The notes beneath the pieces are model-generated. The model ran no database searches, was not told the origin of the DNA, and worked only from the letters and a program-made list of their open reading frames with translations. From Pseudovirgaria hyperparasitica (Eukaryota), in NCBI GenBank assembly GCA_010093815.1, contig ML996566.1: a stretch of DNA of 27,321 nucleotides; one strand, 5' to 3'. Of this stretch, positions 1-27,321 are shown in pieces. The translations under genes were made by a program, and so were the position numbers. The stretch's first letter is position 1. The number at the start of each line of letters is the position of its first letter.

Positions 1-2
1 AT

Positions 3-3000
3 TTCGCGGTAGTTAGCCCGGCCCTTATAGCGGACGTAGCTAAGTCGTGTATCTCGGTCCTACGTCGTTAAGTGGCTCTCGCCGCTAATAGAGTATTAGG
101 ACCGGAGATCACGGAAGTCGTTACTATCTAGTATAATATCGCGGGGTAGCGATAACGCCTTACTATCTATATAGTACCTAGGCTAGACCGGGATCTTATC
201 CTCGGGAGCCTATAGCTCTACTAGGCTAGCGCCGTTATCGATATACGCGTAGATAAAATTACGCTTTACTACGCCTACGGCCTTATAGCCCGGGATATTA
301 ATACCTATAGGCGCCTAATAAGCATCCGGGTCCTTACCGAGAAGGGCTATATTCCTAGAGGTCTAGAGACGGCTTACCGCCGTAGGCGAGTAGTCGCTAC
401 TAGTATCCGCGACGTTACCCGCCTCCTATAACTTATACTCCCCTAGTTACCTCCGGTACCCAACCGGGACGCGACCGAGCTTATAGAGGATAGGCGCCCG
501 CTCCCGTTAACGCTATACGCCTACCGCGATCTCTTTAATAAGGAAAAGACGTCGGCGCTACCTCCCTATAGAGGGAACACCGACTACTATATCTATATTA
601 AGTCTATACCGGCGGGAACCCCTATAAACCTCCCCTAGGGACCACTCTACGCTATATCTTAGAAATAACTCGTAGAGCTCCGTCGCTAGCTTACGGATCT
701 TATAGATAAGAGATAGATACGGGCTAGCTCCTTAGCGGCTAGGGCGCTAGTACTCCTTATCCCTAAGCCGGGAGGGAAGTAGCGGCTATATATCGACTAT
801 AGGGCCCTTAATAGTATTACTAAATAGGACCGATACCCGCTACTACTTATACGCGAGACCCTATATACCATTAGTAATATATTATGGTTTAGTAAGGTGG
901 ACATCTAGGCGGCATTTTATAAACTACGGGTCGCCGCCGGGGACGAATATAAGACGGCCTTCTATACCCGGTTCGGCCTCTTTAAATAGATAGTTCTCCC
1001 TTTCGGTCTCTCTAGCGCCTCTATCTCCTTCTAGCGCTATATTAATAGGGTACTAAGTAGGGTCCTCGGGGTTACCTATATAGCGTATCTTAATAATATC
1101 CTTATATATACCCCGGGCACGTTAGAAGACTACTAGGCCGCCGTAAAAACTATCCTATCTCTTCTTATAAAGGCGGACCTTTACTATAACCTTACTAAAT
1201 GCCGTTTCGCTACTAAGGAGGTCCGGTACCTAGGTTATATTATTACCGCTAGGGAGTCGATCCGCCCTAACCCGGAGAAGATTACCGCTATCTAGGACTA
1301 GGAGCCCCCGACTACGGTCCGGGGCGTCTAGCGGTTTATTAGGTTTATAAACTTCTACCGTAACTTCCTCCCTAACTTCTCTACTATAGCGGCCCCGCTC
1401 TACGCCCTTACTAAGGCCGGGATAGCCTTCTACTAGGGCCCGGCTAAGAACCGCGCGTTTAATACGCTAAAGAACGCTTTTATTACTAGGCTAATCCTCT
1501 AGTCCTAGAACGAGATACACGATATAATAGTTAAGGCGGATTACTCTAGATACGCGACGGGTGGATACCTATCCTAAAAGGTTCGGGGTATTTAGTACCC
1601 GGTAGCCTACTATTCCGCGGCCCTTACGGCCGCTTAGCGGAACTATACGATCTATAATAAGGAGCTCCTTATAGTAGTTTAGTACCTCTAGGCGTGGGAA
1701 CCTAAGCTCCGAAGCGTCTACCGCCCCTTTACGGTCTATATAGACTATAAAAACCTCGAGTACTTTACTAAGTCTTACCTTCTTATCCCACGGTAGTAAT
1801 AATAGTCTAACTAGCTTATACTATTTAACTATAACCTCGTATACCGGCCGGGATCCTAGACGGCCCGTCTAGATACCCTAAGCCGCCGTAACTAGGACTT
1901 ATCTAAAAAGTCCCTTCTAAGGGGACGGCTTATAACTCTACGGGCCATTAGAATGGCACTAGTAAGTACCCGCTCCGGGGAGTCCTATCTCCCCTAGGGA
2001 CGAAGTATCTTTACCGACCCCCACCTCTAGGAGCTCTAGAACTAGGCTATTTAGTTAGTCCCGGTATACCGGGCCTACCACGGGGCCGTAGTAGACGGGG
2101 CACGCCTCTTCCTACTAGAGGCGCTTACTACTAAATAGATTATAGACTACGCCATATCGGTATACGGAATACTAATATAGTAGAGGGTTATTTAGGTGCC
2201 CGAGTGGGAACCCCTTACTATAACTATTATCTAGAAGTTCTATACCTCCCCCCTCGCGGGCCATCCCGGTAAGAATAAGACTTATATAGCCATTTAGTAG
2301 GAGTACTACTAGAAGTAGATATAGGCTAATATCCGGTAGTTCATACGAAACTATAACTACTATAGAGTCTACGTAAACCGACGTAAGGCCCCTAGCCTCC
2401 TCTAGCCTCTTCCGACGCTAGACCAGTTCTAGTCCTAAATTTCTATGGATTTTATAACTAACCTCCCCTAATCGGACCCGTCCCGGCCCTAATATCTTCT
2501 TATTATCACGGACCGGCTCTTAAAGTTTATTTAGCTAGAGGCGATAACCTCTATAGTAGCTAAGGACTACGCTACGCGGTTCCGCGACACGTGGTAGCGT
2601 TTCTAGAGGTTCCCCTAGTTAATAATTATAGACCGGGGCTCGGACTAGCTTAGGTAGTTCTAGATAACCCTCTACTCTATAATAGGTATACGCTAGAACC
2701 TCTCTACGGTCTACCACCCGTAGACGGATAGCGGTACTAAGCGTGCGAACTAGGAGGTGTAGGCCGTACTACGCGTTATAGTAACTTTTAAGTAAACTAA
2801 CTAGCCGGAATATCTCCTAGTATGTTAGCTCGCCCTTAATAACCGTACCTCGTTAGTAACTAGTATAGTACTAAACTTACTCCTAAACGGATACTACGTT
2901 AAACTATTACCATAGTAGCTACTCTTTAACGCCTCTACGACCTTAGCGAAAGGTTAGACTATGAATTTCCTTAAATATCTTTAGGACGGTACTACCTTAG

Positions 3001-3536
3001 CTTAAGCGGCTATTACCTAGGCCGAGTAGCGCTCCTAAGACTCGGTAAACCGGTTATAACGCCCGGCTAAGCGTTTTAAGATCAACAATATAGTATAGTT
3101 CTCTCTCCGGAACGTAAAGACTAACTACCCGAGCCGGAAGCTTGACTAGCTATAGGTAAAATACCGGGTTATAGCCTAACCCACCCCCTTAATAGTAACC
3201 CTTAACCTCCCCGGAGACCTTTATAAAACGGTCTATATAAGTCTTATTAAGCGCGCCGTAGAGGACCCCCTACCTAGCTAAGAGTGGCTCGATACCCGCC
3301 CGGGCCCGGCGCTCGAGCTTAACGAAGTAGACGAGGACATTACGAAGTATAAGGTTAAGAATATTCTATATATAAAAAATACACGGGGGCGGAATAAGTG
3401 ATAGGTACTTATAAAGTAGAAAGGTTAGTTATAACTAATATAGATTCTACTTAAGGACGTAGAAGATACTAAGGCGCTAGACTAGTTCGAGTCTAGATAT
3501 AGCGACGCTCGATTATATAACGGCCTACGACTCTAA
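3..3536 (+). pseudogene. pol: Gypsy pol of element A (protease C-half, RT, RNase H, integrase, chromodomain)
   Basis: Frame +3, RIP-reversed: DLILGSPWL (~190-220); PWGPLYAMS (633); WRLCVDYRALN...DRYPLPLI (~780-850); YLDD seen as TAT CTT AAT AAT at 1086-1097; RNase H EADCSGYA and HDKELL; integrase GHPGKNKT, ISMDFITDLP, TDRGS, YHPQTDGGTERANQ; chromodomain YEVENIL...VLVKWKGW from 3348. The true stop is uncertain. Confidence 0.93.
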
Positions 3537-3780
3537 CATATCCCTAAGTAGTAATATTACTCTACTATTATAGGCCTATAGCGGCCCTAATAACCTAATA
3601 TAAGAGTAGAGATTTTAGGAAAGAAAGAAATAAACGCCGAACGCTAGTACCTAGTATAACCTAATAATAAACTAATACCCGCCTTAAGACATGAAAAGGT
3701 TATTTACCTAGCTCTACCCTAGGTTTACACGGCGCTAGGGCCGGTGCCGTCCTTATCCGTAAATCCTAACATAAGGTTAG

Positions 3781-5367
3781 TTACCTAGTCCTCCCCTAGG
3801 CCGTCTTCTAATAACGGCGGCGGCTATTAATCTAGGCGGGTAGCGAGGGCGAGTTATACTCGTCTATAGGAGGGTTATAGCGGGGGCGGGCCGGCGACTA
3901 ATAGCGGTACGACGCTTAACGATCCTCATAGAAATAATACTAACGGCTACCTAAGTAACGGTAACGGTCGTACGACCGGTCCTAATAGTTATACGACCGG
4001 TTATAATAGCGGGGAGACTAATTACGGCGGGTGGAGGACTGGCTACGACGCTTATAGGACTAGAAGCGGTCACGGTAGCGAGGAGGGGTCTAGAGCTAAT
4101 AATAAGGTAGCGAGGACTCACGAGGAGGGACGGTGATAGGGAGCTAGGGGGGCCTAATAGGGCGATGGCGAGAGCTCCGAGTCGGCGACTCCCTATAGCC
4201 TATAGGCTAGGGTCGGCGCGAGCGGCTACTACCTAATAAGGGCTCCTTATCCTCTATAACTATCTAAGTAATAAGGCGGTAAGATAGTAGCTCCGCTAGG
4301 CGGGCTAACCCGGACACGACTTACTATATAGTACTCTACGTCACGCGTTAGAATAGATATTTAGACTTATAAAGCTTATATATCTATAAGATACCGATAC
4401 TAGTACGTAGCTTATCTATCTAGGCCTCGTTATAGAACACGTACTAATTTATCTAGTAAATTACGCTACTAATCTAGCTATGGTTACTACTACCGTGATA
4501 CGGCGGCTTAAATAACGTTATAGCGCCACGATAAGATATTACGGGAGCCTAACTAATAATACTAGCGTTACGTCGCGCGACGTAGGTAATCTCTAAGTTA
4601 GACTTATAGTCCTTATATAGGCGGTAGAACTTAGAGTTTATACACGGCTACTTACCGGATAAAGGCTTTATCGGGTCTAGGCCGCGACTACCATGATCCG
4701 TTATATGGCTAAAGTTATTATTAACCGACTCGTGTATAAACTTTTTAAGACAACTCTACGCCTTATATAAGGCCGGGTACGTAGCGAGCTCCTTAGTATT
4801 CTATAAGTAGGTCCCCTTTAATATATAGTACTTTATATAGTTAGTACCGCGGCTAGGCTTATAGCTACGCTCTAAGATTAGTAGGCGCCGCCACGGCGTA
4901 GAGACGGCACATACCTAAGTACCCTAGTTTTCTCTAGGGCCTTTATATATATACGATATACGAAGTACACGGACTCGGTACGCTCGTCTTCTAACGAGTC
5001 ACCCTCTATAATATATAGCTCTATACGGTAAATAGACTTAGCCTATTAGGGTACGGTAGAAGGAATAGTCTATCTAGTTAGTATAAGGAACGGCGTAGGG
5101 ATAGGACCTACTTACGGTGCGATCGGCTAGTTTCTAGCGCCTAGGCGCGCGACGATCGTTAGGGTCTTAACCTCTAGTACCTATAGCTACTACTAAGACG
5201 GCGCCGGCTTCTATAATAGGACTATTTAGGCCTAGAGCACTTATAATAATAGTATAGAAGCTGCGAGGTAGTATACGAGTTTACTAATATTATAGTAGCT
5301 ACTACGCGGTATCGAGATAGTAGGCGTGAGAGTAGTTAAGGAAGAAGAAAGTTACTAGGCGTGGGAC
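3781..5367 (-). pseudogene. Antisense spliced accessory gene of element A; Zn(II)2Cys6-like Cys cluster plus Arg/Ser/Pro-rich C-terminus
   Basis: Minus-strand introns: 5115-5070 (GTAAGT..ACTAAC..TAG), 4914-4865 (GTATGT..ACTAAT..TAG), 4655-4593 (GTAAGT..CTAAC..TAG), 4383-4336 (mutated donor ATATAT..CTAAC..TAG), and a further acceptor at 5368. Splicing keeps one frame with only TAA/TAG stops. Start and stop are approximate. Confidence 0.7.
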
Positions 5368-5399
5368 CTATATACTCGCGTTAGGGAAAATCGTGTAGA

Positions 5400-5741
5400 C
5401 CGGGGTAGAGCCGGTCCTAAAATAGATGATAATAATAATAAACGCAGGTCGTGCGTAAGCTACCCTACTACTACTATATGACCCCTAGCCCGGAGAGTAG
5501 CCGGTTCTAAAATAAATAATAATAAAATAGGACGCGCGGTTCGTGCGTAGGCTACCCTACCTTTATATAACCCGACGCGGTACGCTATAATATAAGAAGC
5601 CTACCTCCGCCATATAACCGCCACGATATAACTATAGAATTCTACTACCTTATAATTATATAACCTACGACGCTATAATATAAGGAACTAACCTCCGCCA
5701 CGTAACCGCTAGGATGCTACCATAAAAAGCTACCACCTTAC
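5400..5741. repeat. Two pairs of degenerate ~88-92 bp tandem duplications in the 3' non-coding region of element A
   Basis: GCCGGT(C/T)CTAAAATA at 5410 and 5500, TCGTGCGTA(A/G)GCTACCCTAC at 5449 and 5541; CGCTATAATATAAG...ACCTCCGCCA at 5583 and 5671. Confidence 0.8.
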
Positions 5742-5874
5742 TAGAAGGAATATATAGCCCTACGGTTATTATATAGTACGATATAAAGACCGTAAACCTA
5801 AGACCTAACCGAGCCGGTTATTATTATATAAAATACTAAGCCGGTCCCTAGGACGATCCTAGAGAATAAGGGTA

Positions 5875-6076
5875 TATTATAGACTTCGGCTTTACCTTAT
5901 CTCTAGTATTATATAACGGAGCCGGGATAGATAGAGACTAGTATAGAGGTATTACGTAACCTCGCTTAAGACTATACTTAAAGCTATAACTATACGGCTT
6001 ATCCCTATTCTCTCTAAGTTAAATTATAATATATCTTAATTACCATTGTAGCAACACCTTAGTTATATCCATTATA
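5875..6076 (+). repeat. Putative 3' LTR of element A (~202 bp), preceded by PPT-like AGAGAATAAGGG (5861-5872)
   Basis: Starts TATTATAG and ends CATTATA (TG...CA after RIP reversal). Its end coincides with the break in element B's RT. The partner LTR is not in the window. Confidence 0.6.
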
Positions 6077-6881
6077 GTATCTAGCCTCTTTCGAGATATT
6101 CTTTAATATATTTATAAAGAACTTCGAGTTCTAGTCTCGAAAGTAGGTAAAGTAGGCTATAAGGGACGTCTACTCTCTCTTTAAGCTCGATCTTTAGCTT
6201 ATACGGCCCGTGATTAGGGAGAAGTAACGCATCTTCTACCGAAAACACATCCGTATACTACGAATATATATCGGGTAGCGTGTCTTCGCCCTGATTATTA
6301 CTATTATCCTTATCTTTATTAATGATTAATAAGGATATAAGATAGATTAGTAACGATTAGGTCCGTATAGCGAGGTTCTATGCCTCCTTACTAATAGTTA
6401 CGACTTACTAGTATAATTTACCATAGTATTATCGGAACGTTAATATCTCCTTCTAAAAATTAAGAATAGGGTTTAGGCGTCTAAGCTAAGGTATCCCTAG
6501 AATCATATTCTATTAGCTAATATTAGCCATGATGAATTTATTAGATATCTACTATTTTATTATCTTCGAGTCATGAACTTCGTAATTCGTTATAGCTTTA
6601 CCTAAAGTTCTAACTTTATATCTATTAACTACGATAGTTCGGCTAACTTTACTAAGATCGTACGATAATCTATACTCCTTTATAAGAATCGACGAAATAT
6701 AGTTATCTTCTATACTAGTGTCTACGAGGGCCTATATAGTTTTATTACTATTTACTATGGGTAACGATACTTTTAGTAATATTAGGTCTTTACTCGCCGG
6801 AAGGCGCTACGGCTCCTCCTAAGTATATATAATTTAGCTAAGAACATAGTTAGGTCTCGTGTACTAGCCTATTCTTTTTTC
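6077..6881 (-). pseudogene. pol: pol of element B (protease and first RT residues), -1 frame relative to gag
   Basis: QALVDTGAEDNYIS (D codon 6722-6720; G seen as AGT); IELKEGADVPYGPLYPLSRLELEVL..YLERGWI, then an abrupt break. G AAA AAA at 6881-6875 lies just before the gag stop. Confidence 0.88.
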
Positions 6882-8444: not shown

Positions 8445-8789
8445 ATTTAGATATATATTCCTTATATAAGGAATATTATATATCTATTTATACCTGCCCT
8501 TTTCATAGGTTATAAGCCCGGAGGCTTATAGCTTATATTCGATACTTTATCTTAGGAACTTCTTTTACATCCCCAAGAGGCTAACTTGGTCTATTCGGGG
8601 TAATACAGCGAGATACATACCTTAATTAATAGAGTATACCGAGTACACTAACTACTACTATACGCACGTACGTATAGCGTTAAAACCAAGACGTTATCGC
8701 CGTGTAAAGATATATATATACCCTCTTAAAATCCTCACGGAGATAGAGGCACGGACCACGCTACTAGAACGCCGATATGCCGACCCCCT

Positions 8790-8822
8790 TTTATTAGTTA
8801 AGGGCAGCCCTTAACTAATAAA
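8790..8822. repeat. Palindrome TTATTAGTTAAGGGC-A-GCCCTTAACTAATAA, copy 1
   Basis: Perfect 16-bp arms with a 1-nt centre, immediately before the inferred ORF1 start. Confidence 0.95.
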
Positions 8823-8823
8823 T

Positions 8824-10287
8824 ATAGCGGCCTTAGGCACTGATATACCCCGGTATATACCGGATATACCCCTACCGGTACGATAGAAAAGGCTATATAG
8901 CGATATTACTAAGGGTAACTATACACCTATCTAAAACGTAGAATATACCTAAAGGCGTACACCGCTATAGATAGACGGAATAAAGGGGACCCCGAGAGGG
9001 GAAACCCTCCTAGATTATATTAACTACTAGGTAGTATATATAGAGAAGGAAGCCGGAGAGGGCTAGAAGACCCTCCTATATATATTCTAGAACCTTATCT
9101 AGAATCTAAAGGGAATTACGGAGGAGAAGAAGAAGATATAACTAGAAGGACCGGAGGGTAGGCTCGACTAAATAGAGGCTAGTCTACGTAGAATCTAGGA
9201 GGAACTTACTTAAGGTAAGCGCCCTAGTATATAGGTATAAATAGTAGTAACACCGGAGGCTATACTACGGGCCCCCCGGACCGGCGATATGGTATATAGT
9301 ATACGCGTTATAATCTAGGATAAGGATACCCTAGTATAGGTCTAGTAAGTATCTCTAAAGGATATAGTAAGTAAGATTAACGAATAAAAGAGAATATAGT
9401 TAAACGTTATCGCCGCTAAACTTACGCTAGGAGGAGTAGTACTTACTATAATAATAAATATTACGTAGTAGACTATCTCGCGCGATCCGAACGCGATTAG
9501 TAGTATCTTCCTAGGCGCCTCTATTAGAGCGGCCATATACCTAATATAGGTATACTCTATACCCGTAAGCGGATAGGTTATTAGAGAAGAGGATATTACG
9601 CGGATAGAATAGTTAAACGAGCGAAAATACCTAGAGATTAAGATCGTAAGAGCATGGTAGAAGAATATATAAGGGATTAAAACTAGATTAAAGGTATACT
9701 CCACTATAATAGTAGAGCTTAAGGACCCCGCCCTCGCGTATTAAATTATATAAGAGGGATTCCTAGCGGAAGGGGAGCTTCTTATAGCGGAACCATAGGA
9801 TAGAGCATAGGCGATAATATAGTGGTTTAACTATTAGGGATACGGGTATACGGTATAGCGGTACTCCTAAAAGACTAGGTATAGGTAGTATTAATAAGAA
9901 TATAGTACCTAGGAGTACCCCTATAGGACACGAGGAGAGGGCTAGAGAGATAGGGACACGGCGAAGTACTCTAACTACGACGGTAAGTACCCGTCGTAGT
10001 CGGCTACGTGCGCGAAACGTAAATAGGTTACCGAATATATCTACTTAATCCGGATAAAGGGAGTAAGGTAGCTATAAACGATATAACCTACTACCATTCC
10101 TCTCTTTACTATAATACTACTACTATAGACTACCTCCTTACGAGGAAGCGATTAGAAATAGTAAACCGTTCCGAGAAAGCCAATAATAGAACGGCCCTAA
10201 GGAATTACTAAGGCCGCCGCCGTATAAGGATAGTCGCGTCTTAGAGGAACGAATATATAGGCCTATATATTCCCTAGTACCTAATAA
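8824..10287 (+). pseudogene. LINE copy 1 ORF1 (gag-like, three CCHC knuckles)
   Basis: Frame +1; RIP-reversed FNCQGYGHTAQRC, CGQCQQEHSTWEC, CSNCDGKHPSWSATC at ~9820-10010; ends FPSTQ*. Start codon inferred (ATA GCG GCC). Confidence 0.85.
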
Positions 10288-13200
10288 GAGACTAAGATAC
10301 ACTCCTAATTATATAGATAAATATATAGTATAAACGTAAGAACTAGGTAACACTCCTTAAGGAGACCGGAGCTATAATACTCGCTATATAGGAGCTATAT
10401 AAACACTACCAGACGAACAAACCAATAACATACCTAGGATATTATATAATACACCCCCTAGGACCGGAGAGGAGAGTCCTCTTCTATATCTATAAGTCTA
10501 TTCTACTCTTATTATGGTCGTATACTAAACGGGATAACCTCCGGATAATACTATACCTCTAGACGAATATCGGACCCCTCCATATACATAATATATATAA
10601 TTAGAACTAATCGCTTTAGGCGGATAACATGCTTAAGGGCACTACCGAGCTAGGATAACACATCCTCCTAGGAGACTTTAACCTCTATTATAGCTAGTAG
10701 GGTAGACTAACTATTACCCGCGAAGAGCTTCGAGCTAGAGAACTACGCACCTAATACTATGGCTTCCTATACCTTCTTATACTAGTAGAATAGATTACCT
10801 GGCGAAAACATAAATAAGATAAGGGCGGATCCACACTCGACCTCACCCTAGCCACTAGACATATTTATAATAGGACTTAATACTACCGCCTAAGCCTTAT
10901 ATAGATAGACTCTAACCACGAATATATAGAGACCATAATAGACGTATCCACCCCTTAAGACTAACGAGGGCGATAGCTATAGAAGGATACTAACTAGGAA
11001 AAGTATCTAAAGGACCTAGAATCGACGATCCTAGACCCGTCTATAGTCGACGTATCTAATGGCCCGGCCATTAACCAGGCCGTGAATATACTCCTATAGG
11101 CGTACTAGGGAGTAAGAGATAAACACGTGCCGTACCGAATATATAGACCCCTAGACCCGAAAAGCATACCTTAAGTGCGAGAGCATAGGCGAGAAGTCCG
11201 GAGATTATATATACGCGTATACTATAACCGTATACCTAAAGCGTAGGATGAATAGAGAGAGACGAGAAGATAATAAGATAAGGTCCTCCGCAACGAGCGA
11301 CGTAAATAGTAGCGTATAGTTACGGATAGATATACACGTAATACTACTAGACTATAGTATATAGTAAAATAGGCTAAAAGTACCGCCTCCCCGATATCTA
11401 TACCACTTATACCCCCCCTTATATATTAAGAAAAGACGTACTCCACGAGCCTCGAGAAAATAGAGATCCTATAAGAGGTTATATTCCCTCTCCTAGAACC
11501 TATAGATCTATTAGATATTAACGGCACGGAATACCTAGAAGCTATAAGTATCCCTAGGGAAATCACGGACGACGATATACTTAGCGCTATTAAGACACTC
11601 CCGAATAATAAAGCGCCCGGGCTAGACGGAATTCTAAATCGATGCCTTAAGAGAACTATATAGGCGACCTTACTAATTATAGGCTATATATTCCGAGCGT
11701 ACGCCCGTATAGAATACCACCTATAGAGCTTCCGAACTATATATATGGTTATACTTCTAAAACTAGGGAAGAGCCTAAACACGCCGAAGGGATAGAGGCC
11801 GATCGCCCTTCTCTTCTACCTTAGCAAGGTACTAGAAGCCACGATTACTAAGAAGATAAGTATAGTAGTATAGGTACACGGCCTTCTCCTAGTAAACCAG
11901 AAGGTAAAGGTAGGAAGCTCCCTAATTATAGCTATTTAACACATCCTCGAGGTTATCTAGACTATATAGAAATAAGGACGAGTCGTTACGCTACTCTCCC
12001 TAGACATAGTAGGGGCGTTTAATAAGGTAAACTATATAAGACTTATCCATAACCTCCGGATAAGGCGAATACCTAAGTGGATTATACGATTTATATAGTC
12101 CTTCCTCGCGTAAAGGACTACTTAAATATATATCCCCGGATACCGAAGCGAATATAAGGAGACGGTATACGGCATCCCATAAGGGAGCACCATCTCCCCG
12201 ATTCTCTTCCTCTTCTTTATAGTAGACCTCCTTTAGAGAATAGAATATATAGAGGTAGTTAGATACGCGGACGATATATACCTCCTCACGGTCGATAGTA
12301 GTACTAGTAGAATATATACACGACTCGAACGAGACCACGAGAAATACGTCTAGTGGGTAAAGTACCACGGAGTAAAATTCGCACCTGAAAAATACTAGCT
12401 TATATACTTTATTAACCGCCGTAGAGGATAGGCTACTAGGGAGGGGGCACGTCGCCCCTAAATCGACGCCTTTATAGAACTACCAGTATAGAGTATACGA
12501 GCACTCGGCGTTATAATCGATAATAAGCTAAAATAGGGACTATAGGTGGCATACGCCGTCTCTAGAGCCCTCTAGATAGAAACCACTATACGCTAGATTA
12601 CGGCATCCATATAGGGAACAGCCTAGAATAAGGCGAGATAGCTATACGTCTCCCTAGCACGCCTAGCCTTTATATATGGACACGAGTACTAGTATACGGC
12701 CCTTATATAAGCTTAGCGGGTAAAGCTTAAGTCTATATAAAACCGTATACTCCGCCTTATCTCCGGCGTATATAAAGCTACTAATATAATACTTCTCTAA
12801 CGCGAGATAAACGTAACGAGTATATAGAACTTCTACTAGATATAGAGACTTATATACTTTACTAAATAATAAGTATAAGAACGTGGAGGAGATAGGGTAT
12901 ATACCTTCGCTATACTACGCACACGTATCCGCGCGTATTACTAGGCCCTCCCTACTATAGAATAAACTCGAGTATAATATAAATACTATATAGAGGTAGA
13001 CTCGAGCTAGACCGTATAGAAGGTTCGAAATAACCCGGATACCGTTCTAAGCTAATAGAGCCCTAAGAAGCTTAGCCGCGTTATACGGTTATAGATCTAG
13101 AATAAATAGAGGGAGATACTTAAAGCCTAGTAGGCCTCCTAATAGGATAGGTATCTAGAATAGATCCGAGGGCCTTAGAAGGAACCGAGTAAATAGATAT

Positions 13201-13474
13201 ATAAAGGGCTTACGAAGGCCTAAGTATCCATACTCCTCTAAGCCCGAATAGGCGCTATAGGTCTTCTATATTACCTCTACTAGAGAGGCGTCCTAGATAT
13301 ATCTCCCTAGTACGAGGACTACGGCCGGAGAGATATAATACGCCACTACCTCGCGACGTGCTCTAGCCTCTATACCCTAAGATAAGCCCTCGTCCGTATA
13401 ATAAGAACCTCCGATATCACGCGATAGCTTAATAAGTACCCTAAGGACGTCGCCCGATAGATACTTATATATCA
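10284..13474 (+). pseudogene. LINE copy 1 ORF2 (AP endonuclease, RT, C-terminal Cys/His knuckle; no RNase H recognised)
   Basis: Frame +3: AIQEP, LLGDFNLHH, STLDLT, DSDH; KAPGPDGIPN, WRPIALLSCLGKVLE, LDMAGAFDKV, GIPQGSTISPILF; intact YADD at 12264-12275; CxxC...H...C near 13310-13362. Confidence 0.93.
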
Positions 13475-13974
13475 TTATAGCTTATATTCGACCGTTTATT
13501 ACGAATTATACGGCTTATCTCTATTAAGTTATCTTAATAGAAAGAGATCTACTAGCGTATAGTCCCTACTAGCTAGGCCTCTAGTAATAGAGATTACCTA
13601 GTATCTAAGGTATAACTTCTATCCTACTATATACTCTAGACCTTTATATATATATATTTACCTCTATCTATATATATATATATATAAAGGGAACCTTTTA
13701 ATTATTATATTAAAGGGGACTCTATTATTTATTATAGAAAAGAACTTCTTATACCCTAACGGACCAAACTAGTCAATTCGGGGTAAAACAGCGATTTACA
13801 TACATTAAATAATAGAGTACACCGAGTATAACAACCTCCGACATACGTGCGTACGTGTAGTATATAATACGCGATAATACCGACGTATAGAGATACTATA
13901 TATATATACTCGAAGACTCTTCGATAATATAAGTATAGACTATATCTAATAAACGCCGATACGCCGACCCCCTT

Positions 13975-14005
13975 TTATTAGTTAAGGGCTACCCTTAACT
14001 AATAA
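13975..14005. repeat. 31-bp palindrome, copy 2 (centre CTA)
   Basis: TTATTAGTTAAGGG-CTA-CCCTTAACTAATAA. Confidence 0.95.
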
Positions 14006-14007
14006 CT

Positions 14008-14274
14008 ATAGCGGCCTTAGGTATTATAATACCCTAGTATACGCCGGATATACCCCTACTAGTACGGTAGAAACGGCTATATAGTAATATTAATATGGAT
14101 AGCCAGACACCTATCTAAAATATAGGAACTAACTAAGGGTGCGAAGCGCCATAGATAATCTAGACTAAGGGGACCCCGAGAGGGGAGACCCTCCTAGATA
14201 AAATTAAATACTAGGTAACACGTATAGAGAGGGACGCCGAGAAGGGAAAGAAGACCCTCCTTTATATATTCCGG
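14008..14274 (+). pseudogene. LINE copy 2 ORF1, 5' fragment
   Basis: Homologous to 8824-9090; joins in frame with 22291-23475 (267+1185 nt = 484 codons). Confidence 0.8.
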
Positions 14275-14514
14275 TATTAGGGTTAATACTAGGATAGACT
14301 CAACTAGACCACTATGGTCCAGTACGGTCCGTGACAGGTGGACCCAGGGTAAGCCAGCTAGAATAAGCGAGACCACTATATAAGTAGGCCGCATATACTT
14401 GATTCCTACTCTTTAGGAATTAACCTCGTTAGAAGAGTAGACTACCCTTCTAAATATATTCCCGAATCCTCCTATGACCTATTAGACTACTATCCTACGT
14501 CTATAATCCTTATA
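14275..14514 (+). repeat. 5' LTR of element C
   Basis: Matches 22046-22285 with 10 transitions by manual count; TATATAA at 14377-14383. Confidence 0.97.
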
Positions 14515-14516
14515 TT

Positions 14517-14525
14517 TTAATTCCT
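14517..14525 (+). promoter_or_regulatory. Putative self-priming PBS of element C
   Basis: TTAATTCCT is the exact reverse complement of AGGAATTAA at 14415-14423 in the LTR. Confidence 0.65.
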
Positions 14526-14555
14526 CTTTATATAGCACGACGGTAGTTTATAGGA

Positions 14556-15938
14556 ATGGCTCTAACCACTTATTATAACACTCGTGGCACCGCCTCTTAT
14601 GGTAGACCTTCTCCCAACCTAAACAAGGAGAATAGTCTACCTATAACTACCCCTACTAATAACTACATCTTATAGGCTATCGTACCGATAACTCGCACGA
14701 TATTCCGTGTAACTATAGAAGATGTTATAGAATACGAGGATGGAGTCTATTATACTCTATCTCGGTCTAGTTCGAACTATACTAGACCTAACCTTAATAT
14801 AAGGCTAGACCTTATTAACGTTAACGAGTTAATCCATTAGAATCGCCTAACGTTAACTACACCTTATAATAACGTGTATACTAGACTACACGAAGAGAGG
14901 TAACGACAGGTTTAACTCGAGTAATAACTACGCGAACTCGACGAAGCTCGAGGACGCACTACGAGACTTAAAGCTATATTACGCGCTTTAGTTCTAGTAA
15001 CGACTAATCTATATTTATATAGACCTATACCAACTAAAACGATCTATCCTAGTCTACTACTATCCCAATTACCCCGACCTAAGAAACCACCTTACTTCGA
15101 TGGTAAAAGTAGAAAGAGTTTCCACGTATAGGCTTACTAATATAGCCGATTCTTCCATCTATTCACGAACGATAGCGATAAAATTAGATTCGCCTAGAAC
15201 TACCTCGACCCGACGCCTTTAGAACGTTAGATGGTACACCGAATCGAATATTCTAAGGATGCCTATAACTAGGACACGTTTACCGAATTTCTCCTCTAAT
15301 ATTTTAGCGATAGGGCTAAACGACGCGACTAGGCCTAGAGCCATATCTTCGAGACTCGATAACGAGATAATTAGTTACCGTTATAACTCCTTAAATACCT
15401 TCGGCCCCTCTAGAGAGAAGCCGAAGAAGATCATATAATTTAATAGTACGACGACTTTAAACGGTCCCTCGCCCTAAATATAAAGAACCGTCTCGACCTT
15501 ATAACAATAATCCCTATAGACCTCTAAGCTCTTATAAATCTCGTGGAGCGATACTAGCGCATAATGAATAATTAACGCCGCGCTAGTGCACGACTATCCC
15601 TAACGATCCAATCTAACGTAAAATCGTCTAACTAAAACTAATTTAGTAATAGATCTCGCGGGACGTCACGAGGCTACTACTACGCCTCGAATTTAAAACC
15701 ACGCGGATCGTATCGTGGATCTCTCTACCAATTAATACATCGAGATACGAGGACCGACTCGCATAAATAATCTAAAGTTACTTACTATACCTATAGTAGA
15801 ATAGGCTATATAGTACCTAAGTGCCGTTTAGGGAAGCTACCGAGTGCTAATATAACTAACTAACTAGTTATATACTATAAGTGCTAGTAGCTAGGACACA
15901 TCGCGCCTAACTATCTAGTATAGAATATAAAAAACTAA
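14556..15938 (+). pseudogene. gag: gag of element C (two CCHC knuckles)
   Basis: ATG 14556 in frame with TAA 15936-15938; PKKPPYFDGKS; RIP-reversed CYTCGRMGHIAPEC and CYKCQQPGHIAPNC. Confidence 0.88.
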
Positions 15939-15990
15939 TAGCCTACGAGAAACCCTCGCGACTTATAGGCGCGACTATAATAGAGGGGTA
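15929..15990 (+). promoter_or_regulatory. -1 ribosomal frameshift signal of element C
   Basis: In-phase A AAA AAC (15929-15935) directly before the gag stop, 5-nt spacer, stem GCCTACGAG/CTTATAGGC; pol is in the -1 frame. Confidence 0.75.
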
Positions 15991-18900
15991 ATCCGCTAAA
16001 TAGTATATCGAACTATAGGCTAGACCCATTAAGGTCCCTCGTGGATAATATTAGACTATAATACTTAATAGTGGGTCGGCCACTAACGTTATATTAACCT
16101 AACGAGCACGAGAACTTAACGCTAATATCTAAGCTCCAATAGGTGCTATGTTCCATGGTATCGACGGTCCCATTAAGTTATACGGTACCTATACCATTAA
16201 ATACGGCATCTGGGATAGCGGAGGGAAATGGAAACTCTACTACTTAACCTTCATTGTGGTAGATAGTCCCTTCGATATAATCCTAGGTATGCTATGGCTT
16301 AAGAAATATAACCTAAAACTAGACTTCCTTAAGAAGATAGCTGGCTGGCGTATAAATCTACCTTAATAGGAACTAGTGTAGCTTGTCAACGACGAACAAT
16401 TCTAGAAAGATTACGAGAAGGCGATCTCTACTATCTACGTACTCTTACTCACGTAAAATAGCGAGCTTAGTATTAAAGCGGACGAAAACCTACTATATTA
16501 GTATAAAATATACTAACATGTCGCGTCAGCGATCGATTCCTCCGAACTACCTTAATACTAACCTACCGACCTTGCTATTGATCTCGAAGACGGCTAGTAA
16601 CCTCTATATAGACCTATCTACCCTCTTTTAGAACCTGAGTTATAAGCCCTTCAAGAATATATTAAAAAGAACCTTACGTAAGGATAGATTAGGCCTAGTA
16701 TATCTCTAGCCGGAGCTCTAATCCTCTTTATAAAGAAGAAGGATAGGAGCCTCCGTCTGTGTGTTAACTACCGTGGCCTAAATAATATCACGCGAAAGAA
16801 TCGTTATCTACTACCTCTTATCTCCGAGTCTATTAATAGACTAGAACGCGTAAAGATCTTTACTAAGCTCGATCTACATGACGCCTACTATCGCCTTCGC
16901 ATTAAGGAAGGCGACGAATAGAAAACGGCTTTTAGGACCTATTATAGATACTTTAAGTATACCGTGGTCCCTTTTAGACTAACTAACGCGCTAGGTACCT
17001 TCTAAGCATATATTAATAACGCGCTAGCAGGCCTACTCGACACGACATGTATCGTGTACCTAGATAATATCCTTATCTTCTTAGATAACGAGGAGGAGTA
17101 TATCTAGTACGTACATACAGTCCTAGATAGGCTAGAAAAGTATAAGCTATATATTAAGCTATCTAAATGCGAGTTCCATTAGGACCATGTTAACTTTCTT
17201 AGCTTCGTTATTACTAATCAAGGTATAACCATAGAGAGAGATAGAGTTACTACTATTATGGACTGGTCTAAACCAAAATCCGTTCGAGATATACGTGTCT
17301 TTATTAGCTTCGCTAACTACTACCGAAAATTTATTAAACACTTCTTCCGTTTAGCCGCACCACTTAATGCGCGTACTACTACTACCGACTTATCTATTAT
17401 GGTCCGTGGTGGATAGAAACAGCGTAATATCAAATCATAACCTATTAAATTAACTAAGGTTAAAAGAACATCCTTCGAGAAGATTAAAGAAGCATTCCTA
17501 ACCGCCCTATTACTAGTATACTTCGACCTAACTAAACCTATTCGCGTCGAAACTAATGTATTAGGATTTATAATCTCGGATATACTCTCCTAGCCTAGAC
17601 TAATAGAGTCTAAAAAGGTCTAATAGTATCTAGTTGCGTTTTTCTCGCGCAAGATAGCCGACGTCGAGACTAGATATACTATTTATAACTAAGAGCTACT
17701 AGTAATAGTAGAGTCGTTTAAGTAGTGGTAATATTATCTTAAAGGTACTATATATAACGTTAAGTTACTAACTAATTACTATAACTTAAAGGGGTTTATG
17801 AGCATGACGGTTTTAAATCGTCGATAGATTTAATAGGCTAAGTAGCTTATAAATTTCTACTTTATAATCTACTATCGACCTAGAAGTATAAACCTAGCTA
17901 ATAGAATATTAAGAAGACCTAACTATGAAGAAGGCGCCTAGGATTATAGTAGCTATAGGGTCCTAGAGTAGCTATAGACCCAACTCTTAAGGATAAGGTT
18001 AGATAATGAGTTATCCGACGATTAGCGAGATGCTAACGCCGATGCCGGTAATTAAATTTATGAGACCGAAGCCGGTAACTAAAGACGCGGTACCGAAGTC
18101 CCTAGCGAGCCATTTATCGGCGCTATTAGAGAGGGCGATAGTGCCCGGCGTGTATATTAAGTAGACCTCGCCTAGTTAATCGTGGATCTATAAAAGATAG
18201 ACCCGACAGTTTTAAAGTTACGTAAAATATAGTAAGATAGGTTATTACGGACTAAAGTAGACTATAAGTGGACCTTCGTGGACGGCTTACTCTACTACGA
18301 TGGAAAGTACTATATACCGATAGGCAACGCACGATTTACCGTAGTTAGCCGATACCATAACGCTAACCTAGTAGGACATTTCGGGTATATACGCACCCTA
18401 AGCTCGATTTATTAGTACTATTTTTAGGAAGATATACCTAAGTATATCGAAGAATAGATAGCTACTTATCCGATTTATTAAAGAATAAAGGCACCTAGGC
18501 ATAAGCCATATAGGAACTTACAGCCTCTACTAGTCCCCCTCTTTATATAGGAAGATATTACTATAGATTTTATAGTTAACTTACCTCTAAGCGAGATGCT
18601 TAGGATAAGTTATAATTTAATTCTTATTATCGTGGATAGACTTATAAAGATATCTAGGTACGTCCCTATGTAGAAGACGATTACATTAAAAGAACTAGCA
18701 CAAGTATTCTAGAATAAGATTATTAAGGTCCATGGTATACTAAAAAGGATCGTTACGGACCGAGGGAGTACATTCACGTCCAAATTCTAGACGTTATTCT
18801 GCGAAATGGCCGGCATAAATAGAAATATATTAATAGTATTCCATCTATAAACAGATGGTTAGATAGAGCGATAGAACCAAATGCTCGAGGCCTACCTTCG

Positions 18901-19795
18901 TGCATTCTACAATTTCGAATAAGATAACTAGGCCTCTCTACTAAGCATAGTAGAATTCGCGTATAATAATAGTCGTTATAGTATAATAGGTGTCACGCCC
19001 TTCTAGGCAAACCTAGGACGTAGTCTAAGGACAGGTTTCGAACCTTACACGGTCTAGTTCGACCGAACGATAGATGTTAACGTCCACGCGCAGGAACTAG
19101 CGATTAAAATCTTTAAAACCGCACGCAACTATCGCGTAATAATCTAGTAAGCGAATAAGTCGTATATAAAGTACTATAATAGATTAGTTAAAGATTAAGC
19201 GTACGAGGAGAGAGACGAAGTCCTCCTTAACGTCTATAATATACGAACGTTAAGAGTGAATAAAAAGCTCGATTATAAAATGGCTAGTCCCTTCCGAATC
19301 AAACGTTACATCGGCATAAGAGCCTACGAGCTCGACCTAGGAAACGACATGAAAGTCTATAATGTATTCTACGTCTTATTACTTAAAAGGTTTCGATCTA
19401 ACGTGTATAAACGCACGAACGTGTAATTACACTCTATTATGCCCTAAGATAGACTAGACGTGTACGAAGTGGACTATATTATCGAACATAGGCTCGATAA
19501 GAACGGTGTCTAAAAGTATCGAATCTATTGGAAGAACTACACCGAGGATAAGGACACCTAGGAACCTACGGTGTATATCTTAAGTGCCGCGATAGCTATA
19601 TATAAATAGAGGTTATAGGATAACACGTTACTACCATAAACCTAGCGCCGTTAGGGCCGTCGTAAAAAGAAGAAGGATGCCGTAGAGAACGAAGTGTTAA
19701 ATCACGAATCCTAAACGCACACTAGGAAAACTCTATAAGGCAGCCCTATAATTTAAGCGATGCACGGTTACCAAACGCGAAGAAAACGTAAATAA
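15929..19795 (+). pseudogene. pol: pol of element C (protease, RT, RNase H, integrase, chromodomain)
   Basis: Frame +2: LDSGSATNV; ORF 16148-16366 is the protease C-half (FDIILGM.WL); SLRLCVDYRGLN; YLDD seen as TAC CTA GAT AAT at 17057-17068; VETDASGF; GHFG, ITMDF, IVTDRG, FHPQTDGQTERQN; GPF; chromodomain VYEVDYII...HWKNY...DTWEP (~19460-19570); ends RRKRK*. Confidence 0.95.
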
Positions 19796-19952
19796 CCGTT
19801 ATAGACACGCGACGCGATATATTATAATAGAATAACATGGAGAAGTCTAGAATGGACTAATATAGACTATTACACACGAGAAGAACATAGAACTAAGAAA
19901 CTAAAAAGGTACCCTACTACGGAATTAAACTCGTAATATATAACATAAAAGG

Positions 19953-20002
19953 TTAGAGTACCCGAACCGATAACCACTAGGCCACTGGTTCGGGTACTCT
20001 AA
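19953..20002. repeat. Inverted repeat with 16-bp perfect arms between the pol end and the antisense gene end
   Basis: TTAGAGTACCCGAACC (19953-19968), 18-nt loop, GGTTCGGGTACTCTAA (19987-20002). Confidence 0.9.
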
Positions 20003-20253
20003 TATAATTTAGAGAGATAAACTAATTTATATACGATGCCCACACTTAAGTAACTCAAAGGAAATTAGAATCTAAAATTCAATAGTTATAGAATAAATAA
20101 GAACGCATATAATATCATTAAGTTAAGAATTAAATTACTAGAAAACTAGTAGATAGGTATCTAAACGGTCTAAAAAGGACTAAAACGGACAGAAACCAGG
20201 TAGATAGAGCCAACACACACCATATAGAAACCCTAGTAAACAGAGCCATAGAG

Positions 20254-21558
20254 CTACTCCTCTATCTTATTATTACTCTTAGAGCGTAGTAAACGAACTA
20301 ACCGAGTAATAGAGCGACGGAGGTTAGAGACCTTATCCTCTAGAGTAACCACGCGCTCGGTTAGAGCCTAGTAAGACGACGACTAAGCGCTAGAGCGGAG
20401 CGACTAGACCTAAAGTTAGCTAACACGGTCTAGAATAATCTAGAATAGAATATATACCCTCTTACGAGGTAACTTAGAAGGAGAACTAGTAGATCTCTTA
20501 CGAGACCCGTTAGTAGCACGAGGTAGGCGGGAAGGAATAGCACGAATCTCTTCTGCGGCCTTAGTAGCCAAAACCGACTCCCTAGAATAGGTAGCCTAAG
20601 CGCTAGGAATCTCGCGGCGACTGAAAATTATAAGCTAAGGCTAATAATAATTAACGGTTTCTAAACTTACACTTTAATAACCTCTAGAAAGAGCTTATAG
20701 CGCTCCCTAAACTCCCTACGCATAGAAGCTAGGTAACCGCTAGAACCGCCGAGAGTCTCGCGGACGCGAAGATCGTTATATATATCTTATACACGAATAG
20801 GAACCTAAAAACGTATTAGCATGGATGACTTTAGATTACCCTAGACTAAAATAGCCTAATAGACTTATCTAAAGACAAACTTTACCGAGGACGGTATAGC
20901 GGCGGTAGCGGGTAGGGAGCTTAAAGATTAGGTATATAGGCCCGTCGCGGTTAGTAGAGTAGTAGCTAATACTAGAGTTAGAGCGGAAGAGATATTTAGA
21001 GCTGGTGGCGTGAGCCTTAATATACTTAAAGTATATCGAACCGTAGTTCGCCGTTTTCCTATGGCGTAAACCGCGACCACGTTTAGTATCTTCGGCGACC
21101 TAGGCCTTATTATTACTAGGGCTAGGTTTAGAGCGAATATTAAGGTCCTAAAAGGACCTAGAGTAACTAAGTCGGTCTATGTTAGACCGAAAAGAGGAAC
21201 GGCGTTTAGAGCGAGGCGGCGAAGGCGTGAACTCTCGATTATCGTCTACGACGAGATCTTCTTTATCCTCTAAAGAAGGTAGAGTAGATAGGCGGCGCGA
21301 GTAGGTGTAGGTAGGCTTTATAGCTACCTCTTCCGTAATACTAGTACTAGGATTACCTAGATTAGAGCGACCAGTGGCCACGTTAGTAGTAATAGTAGTA
21401 GTAGCCTTAGCTACCTTCTTCTCTAACTTAGAGCGTGCCTTTATACCACTATAATAAGTGGATTTTTTGGCCGGTGTAGCCGGGGTAGAGGCAATCCCTT
21501 TAGAGCGAGTCTTGCGAGAGGAGGAGGTAGGCTTAGGAATAGAACTAGTATTAGATAT
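20254..21558 (-). pseudogene. Antisense 4-exon accessory gene of element C (~380 aa): basic/Ser-rich N-terminus, Zn(II)2Cys6-like cluster, C-terminal coiled coil
   Basis: Exons 21558-20869, 20804-20671, 20620-20458, 20409-20254 (690+134+163+156 nt = 381 codons). Introns of 64 nt (donor seen as ATAAGT, GCTAAT, TAG), 50 nt (GTAAGT..CAG) and 48 nt (GTATAT, GCTAAC, TAG). ORF-track hit 21148-21381 is part of exon 1. Confidence 0.78.
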
Positions 21559-22028
21559 CTATACACACACGTTAGCTAGAGATCTAAGAGTAGAATACTC
21601 GTTCAGTCTTAAAGGCGATTAAAAAAGCTAAATCAGTAACCGTAATAACGCGAATAGATTACATAGGACCAGCTCTAACGAAAATAGACCACTCTAGACC
21701 CGAACGGATCTAAACTAAAGGAGATAGTATACGAATTAACGACTTACCTTAAGAGTAAGGTAGATATACTAGAGAAGAAAATTCAGAATAAGAGAACTAA
21801 ATATAAGCTTAGTTAATATAGCGGTTACATGACCCGCGGAGCTACCTCTAAGGCAGTAGCTATGAAGTAAGGGATGAGCGCGTATATAAATAAAAGTAAA
21901 CTAGAGCTCGAGTTTACCGATATAAAGACTATCAATAATATTATATAGATTCAATTAGATGCGCGTATAAACATAACGCTTATAGAATTACGGATTTATA
22001 TATAGCTAAGTACTTCGGGGCGAAGCAT

Positions 22029-22042
22029 AAAAAGAAGAAGGA
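22029..22042 (+). promoter_or_regulatory. Polypurine tract of element C
   Basis: AAAAAGAAGAAGGA, 3 nt before the 3' LTR. Confidence 0.85.
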
Positions 22043-22045
22043 TAT

Positions 22046-22285
22046 TATTAGGGTTAACACTAGGATAGACTTAACTAGACCACTATGGTCTAGTACGGTC
22101 CGTGATAGGTGGACCCAGGGTAAGCTAGCTAGAATAAGCGAGACCACTATATAAGTAGGCCGCACATACTTAATTCCTACTCTTTAGGAATCAACCTCGT
22201 TAGGAGAGTAGACTACCCTTCTAAATATATTCCCGAATCCTCCTATGACCTGTTAGACTACTATCCTACGTCTATAATCCTTATA
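22046..22285 (+). repeat. 3' LTR of element C
   Basis: Direct repeat of 14275-14514, followed by the TSD TCCGG. Confidence 0.97.
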
Positions 22286-22290
22286 TCCGG

Positions 22291-23475
22291 GACCTTATCT
22301 AGAACCTAAGAGGAATTATAGAGGAAGAAAGGAAGTCGCCACGAGAGGAACCTAGTAGTAGGCTCGACCGAATAGAAGCCAGTCTACGGAGAATCTAGAA
22401 AGAGCTATCCTAAGGTAAGCGCCCTAACACGTAGGCTTAGATTATAGTAATACCCGGAGCCACCATACTAAGGACTACTAGGACCATAGATAGAGTATAT
22501 AGTATACGTATTATAATCTAGAATAAGGACACGCTAGCGTAGGTCTAACGGGCATCCCTAAAGGAAATTATAAATAAGATTAATGAATAGAAAGGAATAT
22601 GGTCGAGCGTTATAGCTACTAAAGTTACGCTAGGTAGGGTAGTACTTACTACTATAATAAATACTACGTAGTAAAATATCTTACGAGATCCGAACGCGAT
22701 AGGTAGTATCTTCCCCAGCGCGTCTATTAGAGTAGCTATATACCCGATTATAGTATATATAGTACCCGTATAGGGATAGGCTATCGGAGCGGAGGATATT
22801 ACGTGTATAGAATAATCTAACACGCGAAAATACCTAGGGATTAAGATCGTAAAAGCGTGGTAGAAGAACCTATAGGCGATTAAGACGACGGCGAAAAAAC
22901 ACTCTACTATAATTATAGAGCTCCGAGACCCCGCCCTTATATAACGCATTATATAGGAGGGATTCCTAATAGAAGAAGAGCTCCTTATAGCCGAGCTATA
23001 GGATAGGGCATAGGTAATAATATAGTGCTTTAACTATTAAGGGTATAGATATACTATATAAAGGTGCTTATAGAAGACTAAGTACGGATAGTACCGTGGG
23101 GACCATACTACCTAGGAGTGCCCTTATAAACCGCGAGGAGACGGACTAAGAAATAGGGACATAGTATAGTATTTAAACTACGACGGGAAACACCCGTCGT
23201 AGTCGTTAACGTGCATAAAATATAAATAGGTTATAGAATACATTCGCATAATAAAAGCGAGAGACGCAAGATAGTTATAGAATATAACACCTACTACGAG
23301 CCCTTCCTTTATAACACCCCTAATCTCCCCTCCGGAAGATAGTTAGGCGGGATAGTAGACTATCCCGAAGACGATAGGACGACTAAAAGGCATAGTTAAA
23401 GCCGCTACCGCGCGAGGATAGTCGCGCCTCCGAGGAATAAGTATATAGGTATATATACTTTCTAGTACCTAATAA
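22291..23475 (+). pseudogene. LINE copy 2 ORF1, 3' part
   Basis: Homologous to ~9091-10287; QCFNCQGYGH and two further CCHC knuckles at ~23020-23215. Confidence 0.87.
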
Positions 23476-26400: not shown

Positions 26401-26795
26401 TAAAAGCCTAAGCATCTATACTCATCTAAGCCCGAATGGGCGCTATAGAACTCCTATACTATATCTATAAGAGAGGCGTTCCCGATACCTCCCTATAGTA
26501 TAAGGCGTATAGCCGGAGAGGTATAATACGCCACTATCTAGCTATATACCCTAACCTCTATATATAACGGTAATAGCTTATCTACGTTACGAAGACTTTA
26601 GATATCGTATAATAGCTTAATAAGTACCCTAAGGATGTCTCCTAATAGATACTTATATATCTACTACTCCTCTAGTACTAGTAGACCTAGAAAGATATAC
26701 TAGAAGAGACCCGGTATACGCCGGTAGTAACCCGATATATACCGGAAGAACCCCGGGAGAACCCCGATTATTAGTTAAGGGCAGCCCTTAACTAA
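23472..26795 (+). pseudogene. LINE copy 2 ORF2 (AP endonuclease, RT, Cys/His knuckle)
   Basis: Same motifs as copy 1; YADD seen as TAC GCC GAT AAT at 25452-25463; the frame runs into the third palindrome copy, so the stop position is inferred. Confidence 0.92.
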
Positions 26796-26798
26796 TAA
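26768..26798. repeat. 31-bp palindrome, copy 3
   Basis: TTATTAGTTAAGGGCAGCCCTTAACTAATAA, identical to 8791-8821. Confidence 0.95.
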
Positions 26799-27018
26799 CC
26801 TCCGTACCTATACGTGCTACCTAAGGGTAAAATAATAGTAATATAGACTATAGGCTAATAGGCGTACCCTATAGCTATATACTTAAGACGAAATAGAGGT
26901 TTAACGAGATGTAGTTATAGATATAAGGAAGTTTTTCCCTATAGGGTTTCTTCTTATATAGTGGCTTAGACTAGAGGAGGCATAGGTCTATAGAGTACTA
27001 CTCTACCTAGTTATATAA

Positions 27019-27048
<30 letters not shown>
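27019..27048 (+). repeat. (TAT)10 tail at the 3' end of LINE copy 2
   Basis: Trinucleotide run whose last two units overlap the TSD. Confidence 0.85.
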
Positions 27049-27049
<1 letters not shown>

Positions 27050-27321
27050 TATTATAGGGATATATTCTATCTCTATAATATTTATATAGTATACTTAGAG
27101 TTTCTAGGCCCTAGAACCCTTAGAAAATTATCTAGTATACTTATAGCTAGCGAGAATATCTATTTTATAGAGTTTATTATAATAGATATAATATATAAAA
27201 AATAGTTTATACTATTACTTTATATATTCTATTATATAAGACTTCTAGAGTAAAGGGAAACTCTAGAAGAACTCTATAAAAAGTATTCTAGAGAAGATAG
27301 ATCTATTAAATAGACGAACGA

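Follow-up and report, generated by a model that had tools for sequence, protein, structure and literature searches.

Antisense genes located between pol and the 3' LTR are already known from fungal Gypsy retrotransposons. The gene brtn occupies this position in the Boty-like elements of Botrytis cinerea and Sclerotinia (Zhao et al. 2011, Virology 417:248, as cited in PMC8365987, PMC7264820, PMC4227169 and PMC5987419), and the passages that mention it in these four articles describe it as an antisense gene of unknown function. Antisense open reading frames (ORFs) are also reported, in the part of PMC7264820 that deals with them, for the plant LTR retrotransposons Grande1, RIRE2, Retand and PvRetro13, as conserved within families and of unknown function. 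The element studied here (element A) resembles the hosts of brtn, as these are portrayed in the citing passages, in being a fungal Gypsy retrotransposon with a chromodomain and, in the region from pol to the 3' LTR, an extra, here putative, gene in antisense orientation; the two are likened by position and orientation, from the descriptions of brtn alone. The plant ORFs, as summarized there, are also alike in position and orientation, and their hosts belong to plant lineages other than chromoviruses. Since an antisense gene in this position is already known, the idea is not wholly new. A first-pass annotation of this DNA, which proposed such a gene with introns and six cysteines, knew of no description of it, without excluding one. 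This was partly borne out: in the full-text literature, outside which most subscription journals lie, we found no link between a zinc-cluster protein and an antisense gene in LTR retrotransposons of fungi and no description of the intact antisense genes presented below, but brtn, as far as the citing passages go, is a published antisense precedent.

The window, i.e. the whole stretch of 27,321 nucleotides of Pseudovirgaria hyperparasitica DNA that was analysed, is strongly RIP-mutated over its entire length, as judged against the usual thresholds for RIP indices. From 1 to 6000, TpA/ApT amounted to 1.9-2.6 and (CpA+TpG)/(ApC+GpT) to 0.08-0.18; beyond 6000 the latter index was 0.2-0.4. Element A begins with a RIP-degraded pol on the plus strand (3..3450), truncated by the window start, in which Pfam and relatives reveal the order protease, RT, RNase H, integrase and chromodomain. 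A single plus frame matched RVT_1 (3e-24), RT_RNaseH_2 (3.6e-16) and Integrase_H2C2 (2e-4), so that RT, RNase H and integrase stand in order on one strand, as in Ty3/Gypsy chromoviruses. When this pol was used in a protein search, 7,999 candidates were scored, and 920 of them were relatives with E ≤ 1e-10; identity reached 51% in the best case. These 920 proteins carry the domain set of element A, and the nearest of them, P0005-P0008 with 48-51% identity, are encoded on contigs of 4.9-8.1 kb. The fact that a RIP-mutated pol still matches 920 proteins indicates that RIP has not blinded protein searches. The chromodomain-like stretch that closes pol at about 3450 can be read by eye against the consensus of alignment A1; PF00385, which many relatives carry, was absent from the Pfam matches on the RIP-mutated frame. 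In the relatives, the pol protein stops about 20 residues past the chromodomain.

Pol is followed by a spacer of 2.4 kb (3451..5880), and the segment to which the annotation had assigned the antisense gene, 3781-5370, lies inside it, between the end of the chromodomain and the LTR side of element A. Contigs from two DNA runs of one sample were mapped on the window, more than 3,800 contig pieces coming from run X1. Their depth over 3740-5880 was similar in magnitude to that over pol, apart from a dip at 3874-4141, where contigs skipped 152, 71 and 83 nt. Since the spacer is covered at a pol-like depth, it is part of a multi-copy family and not a private insertion; it is found between pol and the 3' LTR in the copies of the family, as is typical of brtn or of aORF-3R. 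The variants listed from these contigs represent 40 of the 538 variant positions, none of which falls in the six codons discussed below, and runs X3 and X4 contained no match over 2400-6076 at 80% likeness. Upstream of the putative antisense gene, the interval 5400..5740 harbours two ~90-nt direct-repeat pairs, D1 (5582-5652/5670-5740, 77%) and D6 (5434-5468/5526-5560, 80%), which may mark a promoter or be repeats proximal to the LTR.

The minus strand of the spacer contains four intron-like segments of 46, 50, 63 and 48 nt, just as the first-pass annotation had reported, three with standard fungal signals and the fourth with a mutated donor. Segment 1 (5115-5070, 46 nt) reads GTAAGT..TACTAAC..TAG, and most other copies have a G at 5113, turning the donor into GTGAGT and thus keeping it within GTRAGT. 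Segment 2 (4914-4865, 50 nt; GTATGT..TACTAAT..AG) has an alternative acceptor at 4872 and lacks one base at 4874 in a single contig; its removal is required to assemble the six-Tyr motif discussed below. Segment 3 (4655-4593, 63 nt) reads GTAAGT..TCTAAC..TAG. These three segments display the features of fungal introns, namely a GT donor, a CTRAY branch point near a YAG and a length of about 40-90 nt. Segment 4 (4370-4323, 48 nt) is weak and falls outside them, its donor being ATAAGT and not GT; it also passed neither of the two intron grammars that were applied. The stricter grammar (GT[AG][AT]GT, CTAA[CT] and YAG, 40-75 nt) returned five sites on the minus strand and none on the plus strand, and three of the five lie within 600 nt. 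Clusters of at least three strict sites arose in 1 of 200 first-order Markov simulations (0.5%) and in none of 200 third-order ones. With the looser grammar, the whole window contained 15 sites versus a simulated mean of 20, i.e. no enrichment. The intron-like cluster is the sole feature at this locus that exceeds chance. Segments 1 and 2 have a similar stretch of 25 nt in common, and so have segments 3 and 4; the clustered segments may therefore not be independent events. That one frame is kept across the four segments, as had been claimed, is correct, but for the 63- and 48-nt segments it holds without splicing too: as both are multiples of 3, a single frame extends from 4863 to 3781 whether they are spliced or not, and the frame shifts only with the 46- and 50-nt segments.

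The annotation had placed six former Cys codons around segment 2. We confirmed that all six are currently Tyr codons (TAT at 4958, 4949, 4863 and 4839; TAC at 4830 and 4809) and that removal of the 50-nt segment spaces them X2, X11, X7, X2, X6. Together with two further Tyr codons they form a stretch (4807..4969, minus strand, from the codon table) that is enriched in Tyr, with 8 per 40 residues. In all frames Tyr accounts for about 8% of the codons, with a range of 5-16%, and Cys has almost vanished through the conversion of TGY to TAY; under RIP, a present Tyr codon may go back to Tyr, His or Cys. Unspliced matches to a relaxed six-[Y/C] pattern numbered nine over the window's six frames, versus a simulated mean of 5.9, and the exact spacing proposed for the motif occurred nowhere unspliced. 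Where Zn(2)-Cys(6) domains are expected to have X6, this motif has X11, and the pattern CX2CX6CX5-12CX2CX6-8C, with [Y/C] at the Cys positions, had no match in the tail of A or in that of element C (a second Gypsy element, described below), spliced or unspliced. The claim of a former Cys6 motif was not supported, as it is built wholly from Tyr codons, departs from the canonical Zn2Cys6 spacing and lacks similarity to Cys-cluster families. A six-cysteine reading of element A is unproven and not demonstrable from one saturated copy.

Stop codons were also counted. The true pol frame contains 92 stops in 1,149 codons (0.080 per codon), which is like the other frames, so that stop density cannot pick the coding frame in this DNA. 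The set of exon frames proposed by the annotation has 10 stops in 195 codons versus 15 and 26 for the alternatives, a weak preference. A codon model restricted to purine/pyrimidine classes, on which RIP has no effect, lacked power and ranked the true frame best in 3 of 17 windows of pol A. Downstream in the putative gene, the interval 3781..4322 is of low complexity and variable length, and is fairly open on both strands, rich in R/S/Y/P on the minus strand and in G/S/R/T/N on the plus strand in the phase of pol. The composition of the proposed R/S/P/Y-rich tail is real (R 18%, S 13%, Y 12% and P 11% in the minus reading 4320-3781), but 15 of the 180 codons of its frame are stops, the background level; the plus frame in pol phase has 9-11 in about 180.

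Relatives of the putative product were sought with several methods. Neither phmmer against 1.84 billion representatives nor a word search returned a single match for the 211-residue read of 4863-4231, with X at the stops. Pfam detected no family at E ≤ 1, PF00172 included, on the three minus frames of the window.

Element C extends from 14275 to 22286, with 241-nt LTRs that are 96% alike and a pol that ends near 19640. It interrupts the second member of a pair of Tad-like LINE copies; the first 300 nt of that second copy are found at 13952-14251. The two LINE copies (8768-14251 and 22292-27321) are RIP-mutated and 71-85% alike. The tail of C, read on the minus strand (20869-21558), is free of stops for 136 codons and has two stops in 230 codons, the local mean being 0.085 stops per codon; it is S/T/K/P-rich, then Tyr-rich, with a retained Cys at its end. 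A 229-residue read of this tail gave no match in a word search, and Pfam found nothing relevant on its minus frames. When the tails of A and C were compared with each other, tblastn and a BLOSUM tile scan both remained empty, in agreement with the annotation, which had seen no nucleotide similarity between the two genes.

Intact antisense genes were found in chromoviruses from metagenomes. An alignment of 16 pol relatives led to 79 metagenomic loci and to 2 loci from a viral collection, the latter without tails. An antisense gene lies directly after pol in 10 of the 79 un-RIPed metagenomic loci, a figure that is a lower bound (49 loci extend at least 600 nt past pol). Six of these loci constitute family i (L030, L046, L061, L063, L067 and L071) and three constitute family ii/iii (L011, L031 and L023), in which the six Cys are invariant and spaced CX2CX6CX8CX2CX6C. 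The tenth, L078, is a self-overlapping unit of 7.5 kb with an antisense ORF about 700 nt past pol that reads C-X2-C-X11-C-X8-C-X2-C-X6-C. The ORFs of family i begin 145-420 nt past pol, and those of L023 and L031 overlap the end of pol. Six ORFs contained the strict Zn2Cys6 pattern, all of them on the minus strand; a looser cluster pattern was present in five plus-strand ORFs and in three further minus-strand ones (L019, L063, where it is a simple repeat, and L078). The dN/dS ratio of the antisense frame was 0.15 for L046-L030, 0.21 for L031-L011 and 0.30 for L046-L071; of the remaining five frames, the opposite one that is codon-aligned yielded 0.44-0.63 and the four others values around or above 1. 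These antisense genes are under purifying selection. At least four loci, L046 (57 nt), L030 (57 nt), L061 (70 nt) and L063 (54 nt), share a conserved, T-rich antisense intron (GT, GCTRAC, YAG) that immediately precedes the Cys cluster. As a side observation, nine contigs (L001, L002, L003, L012, L016, L023, L039, L056 and L078) end in a copy of 100-370 nt of their own start; this identifies them as wrap-around assemblies of LTR elements, in which sequence downstream of pol may appear at the start of the contig.

The intact genes resemble Zn(2)-Cys(6) domains (PF00172; Gal4, Put3, Leu3, Hap1 and Pho7) in having CX2CX6CX8-11CX2CX6C followed by a long helix, whereas element A does not show the canonical pattern. 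Their Pfam Zn_clus matches were all below the gathering score, with E values of 0.006-0.4. The AlphaFold model of the L031 protein, computed from an alignment of three sequences, has a mean pLDDT of 65 and consists of two short helix pairs around the Cys, then a helix of 58 residues. With this model, Foldseek returned no hit at E ≤ 0.001, and most of its 27 weak rows were Zn2Cys6 domains (Leu3, Put3, Gal4, Pho7 and Hap1). In the ESM Atlas, the protein adjoins clusters of 'hypothetical proteins' of about 200 residues, mostly from Ascomycota, with a score of 0.94. A sequence search of the PDB with the L031 ORF yielded nothing relevant.

The metagenomic antisense genes and the putative gene of A are alike in position, in orientation and in having an antisense intron, and the spacing of L078 (X11, X8) came out close to that inferred beforehand for A (X11, X7). 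They differ in that no sequence or profile similarity links them to A or to C, and that their families belong to other pol clades than A. A profile built from five members of family i found nothing relevant in the six frames of the window with hmmsearch --max, and the tails of A and C had no match among the 79 metagenomic loci. There was also no match to either tail after the 79 loci had been mutated in silico in RIP fashion, a treatment that did not raise the score of the control (218 versus 242 bits). RIP-aware Smith-Waterman alignment of L078 with spliced A scored 49, which is not significant against a null 95th percentile of 52; the N-terminus of L078 scored 60 against a tile of C, also not significant (tile mean 37.7, sd 8.6, maximum 75).

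A tree of RT-RNase H (82 rows, quick search, SH-aLRT support only) placed family i in a single clade of 8 (support 99) and family ii/iii in a single clade of 3 (support 91). Element C paired with L078 (support 94) and element A fell in a clade of 8 with L001-L005, L007 and L025 (support 100), though A and C are long branches of odd composition, which makes the placement of both unsure. Alignment of the family ii/iii and family i profiles with hhalign reached an E value of 0.052 over 18 columns, and did not show kinship. In the clade of A, L001, L002 and L003 are self-closing and compact (about 5.4-6.4 kb). None of its seven loci shows a comparable minus-strand Cys-cluster gene, L001 having been read fully and four of the contigs holding an incomplete element. 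The evidence points to the intact antisense genes being separate families in separate pol clades rather than one inherited module. The conserved third-gene module put forward by the first-pass annotation is thus upheld insofar as antisense genes between chromodomain and 3' LTR exist (in the 10 loci and, going by the passages on it, as brtn), but not as regards vertical inheritance, given the separate pol clades and the unlike profiles. As for A, its putative gene was apparently gained in the lineage of A itself and not inherited from a common chromovirus ancestor.

It is quite possible, although we give it a less than even chance, that the spacer is devoid of coding sequence and constitutes a partly hypervariable 3' untranslated or regulatory region, and that the intron-like motifs and the Tyr pattern are by-products of short repeats and of the TA-rich sequence left by RIP. 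Such an origin would explain why no coding signal and no relatives were detected, why the Tyr patterns remained at chance level and why the looser intron grammar was not enriched in the window as a whole; it also fits with the similar stretches common to segments 1/2 and 3/4, and with a length at 3874-4141 that varies between copies by non-multiples of 3. Yet, by-products of composition would hardly be expected to yield the strict three-site cluster, given its frequency in the simulations, nor five strict sites out of five on the minus strand, and intact elements do house antisense spliced genes at this very position. The length variation is also one of the reasons why we regard as highly improbable that 3781-4320 was coding on the plus strand, as a Gly/Ser/Asn-rich extension or an extra sense ORF in the phase of pol, of which the minus tail would be the mirror image. 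The lower number of stops in the plus frame than in the minus tail frame would be accounted for in this way, but the pol of the relatives stops shortly after the chromodomain, and about 110 stop-rich codons separate the chromodomain from this stretch.

We also considered that the antisense gene might be real but that its product was no cysteine-cluster protein, the six codons having been Tyr or His and the likeness to C and to Zn2Cys6 being coincidental, as would be the case for a one-off captured fragment of a host gene. This we deem unlikely. It draws on the ambiguous origin of Tyr codons under RIP, on the non-canonical spacing and on the lack of similarity to any Cys-cluster family; furthermore, no coiled coil follows the cluster in A, unlike in the intact families, and the pol clade of A shows no comparable gene. 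These arguments have to be set against a spacing near that of L078 and against the enrichment of Tyr in the stretch.

Our preferred reading, to which we would accord a probability approaching but not attaining one half, is that the spacer segment 3781-5370 is the RIP-dead remnant of an antisense, intron-bearing accessory gene of family A. It is favoured by the RIP indices, the presence of the spacer in the copies of the family, the cluster of three intron-like segments, the kept GTRAGT donor, the precedent of brtn and the intact analogues; it is disfavoured by the lack of a frame that stands out, by the fact that no protein, Pfam or profile relatives were found, by Tyr patterns attributable to chance and by a clade of A without such a gene. 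According to this antisense-gene reading, the spacer of a multi-copy Ty3/Gypsy chromovirus family destroyed by RIP would preserve the ruins of an accessory gene that was encoded opposite to pol and interrupted by three or more short spliceosomal introns. By an established logic, such introns would survive retrotransposition, since antisense introns go unrecognised in the genomic RNA, which is of sense polarity. The promoter of the gene may have been located in the spacer towards the LTR and, by analogy with the intact elements, the product may have been a small protein of the nucleus that carried a cluster of cysteines at its N-terminus and acted on the DNA or chromatin of the element itself, most probably as a regulator that binds DNA. 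We infer in this way that the exons were coding, that the Tyr codons were formerly Cys and that the product had any function; nothing in this copy can be functional.

A broader generalization, which we consider rather doubtful, would be that separate clades of fungal chromoviruses carry, in the spacer between pol and LTR, antisense intron-bearing genes for small coiled-coil DNA-binding proteins of the Zn2Cys6 type, i.e. a transposon-encoded transcription-factor module that was gained repeatedly or diverges fast, A and C being RIP-killed representatives of an X11-loop subtype like L078. If the wreck in A is a true member, antisense spliced genes occur in fungal Gypsy elements of four pol clades or more, and the intact cases encode cysteine-cluster proteins of the type that fungi use as transcription factors. 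LTR retrotransposons could then regulate their own transcription or that of their host, or steer chromatin, and the long spacers between pol and LTR would be explained. The dead locus in the window cannot settle this question; its value is that of a lead, which exposed the intact families.

The sequence next to the spacer of element A behaved differently from it in the DNA runs. Depth rose about 10-fold from 5884, and many contigs broke at the repeat boundary 6076/6077. The repeat at 5884-6400 is about 10 times commoner than element A in these runs, and the version of 6077-6347 found in two other runs with the same species label looks less mutated.
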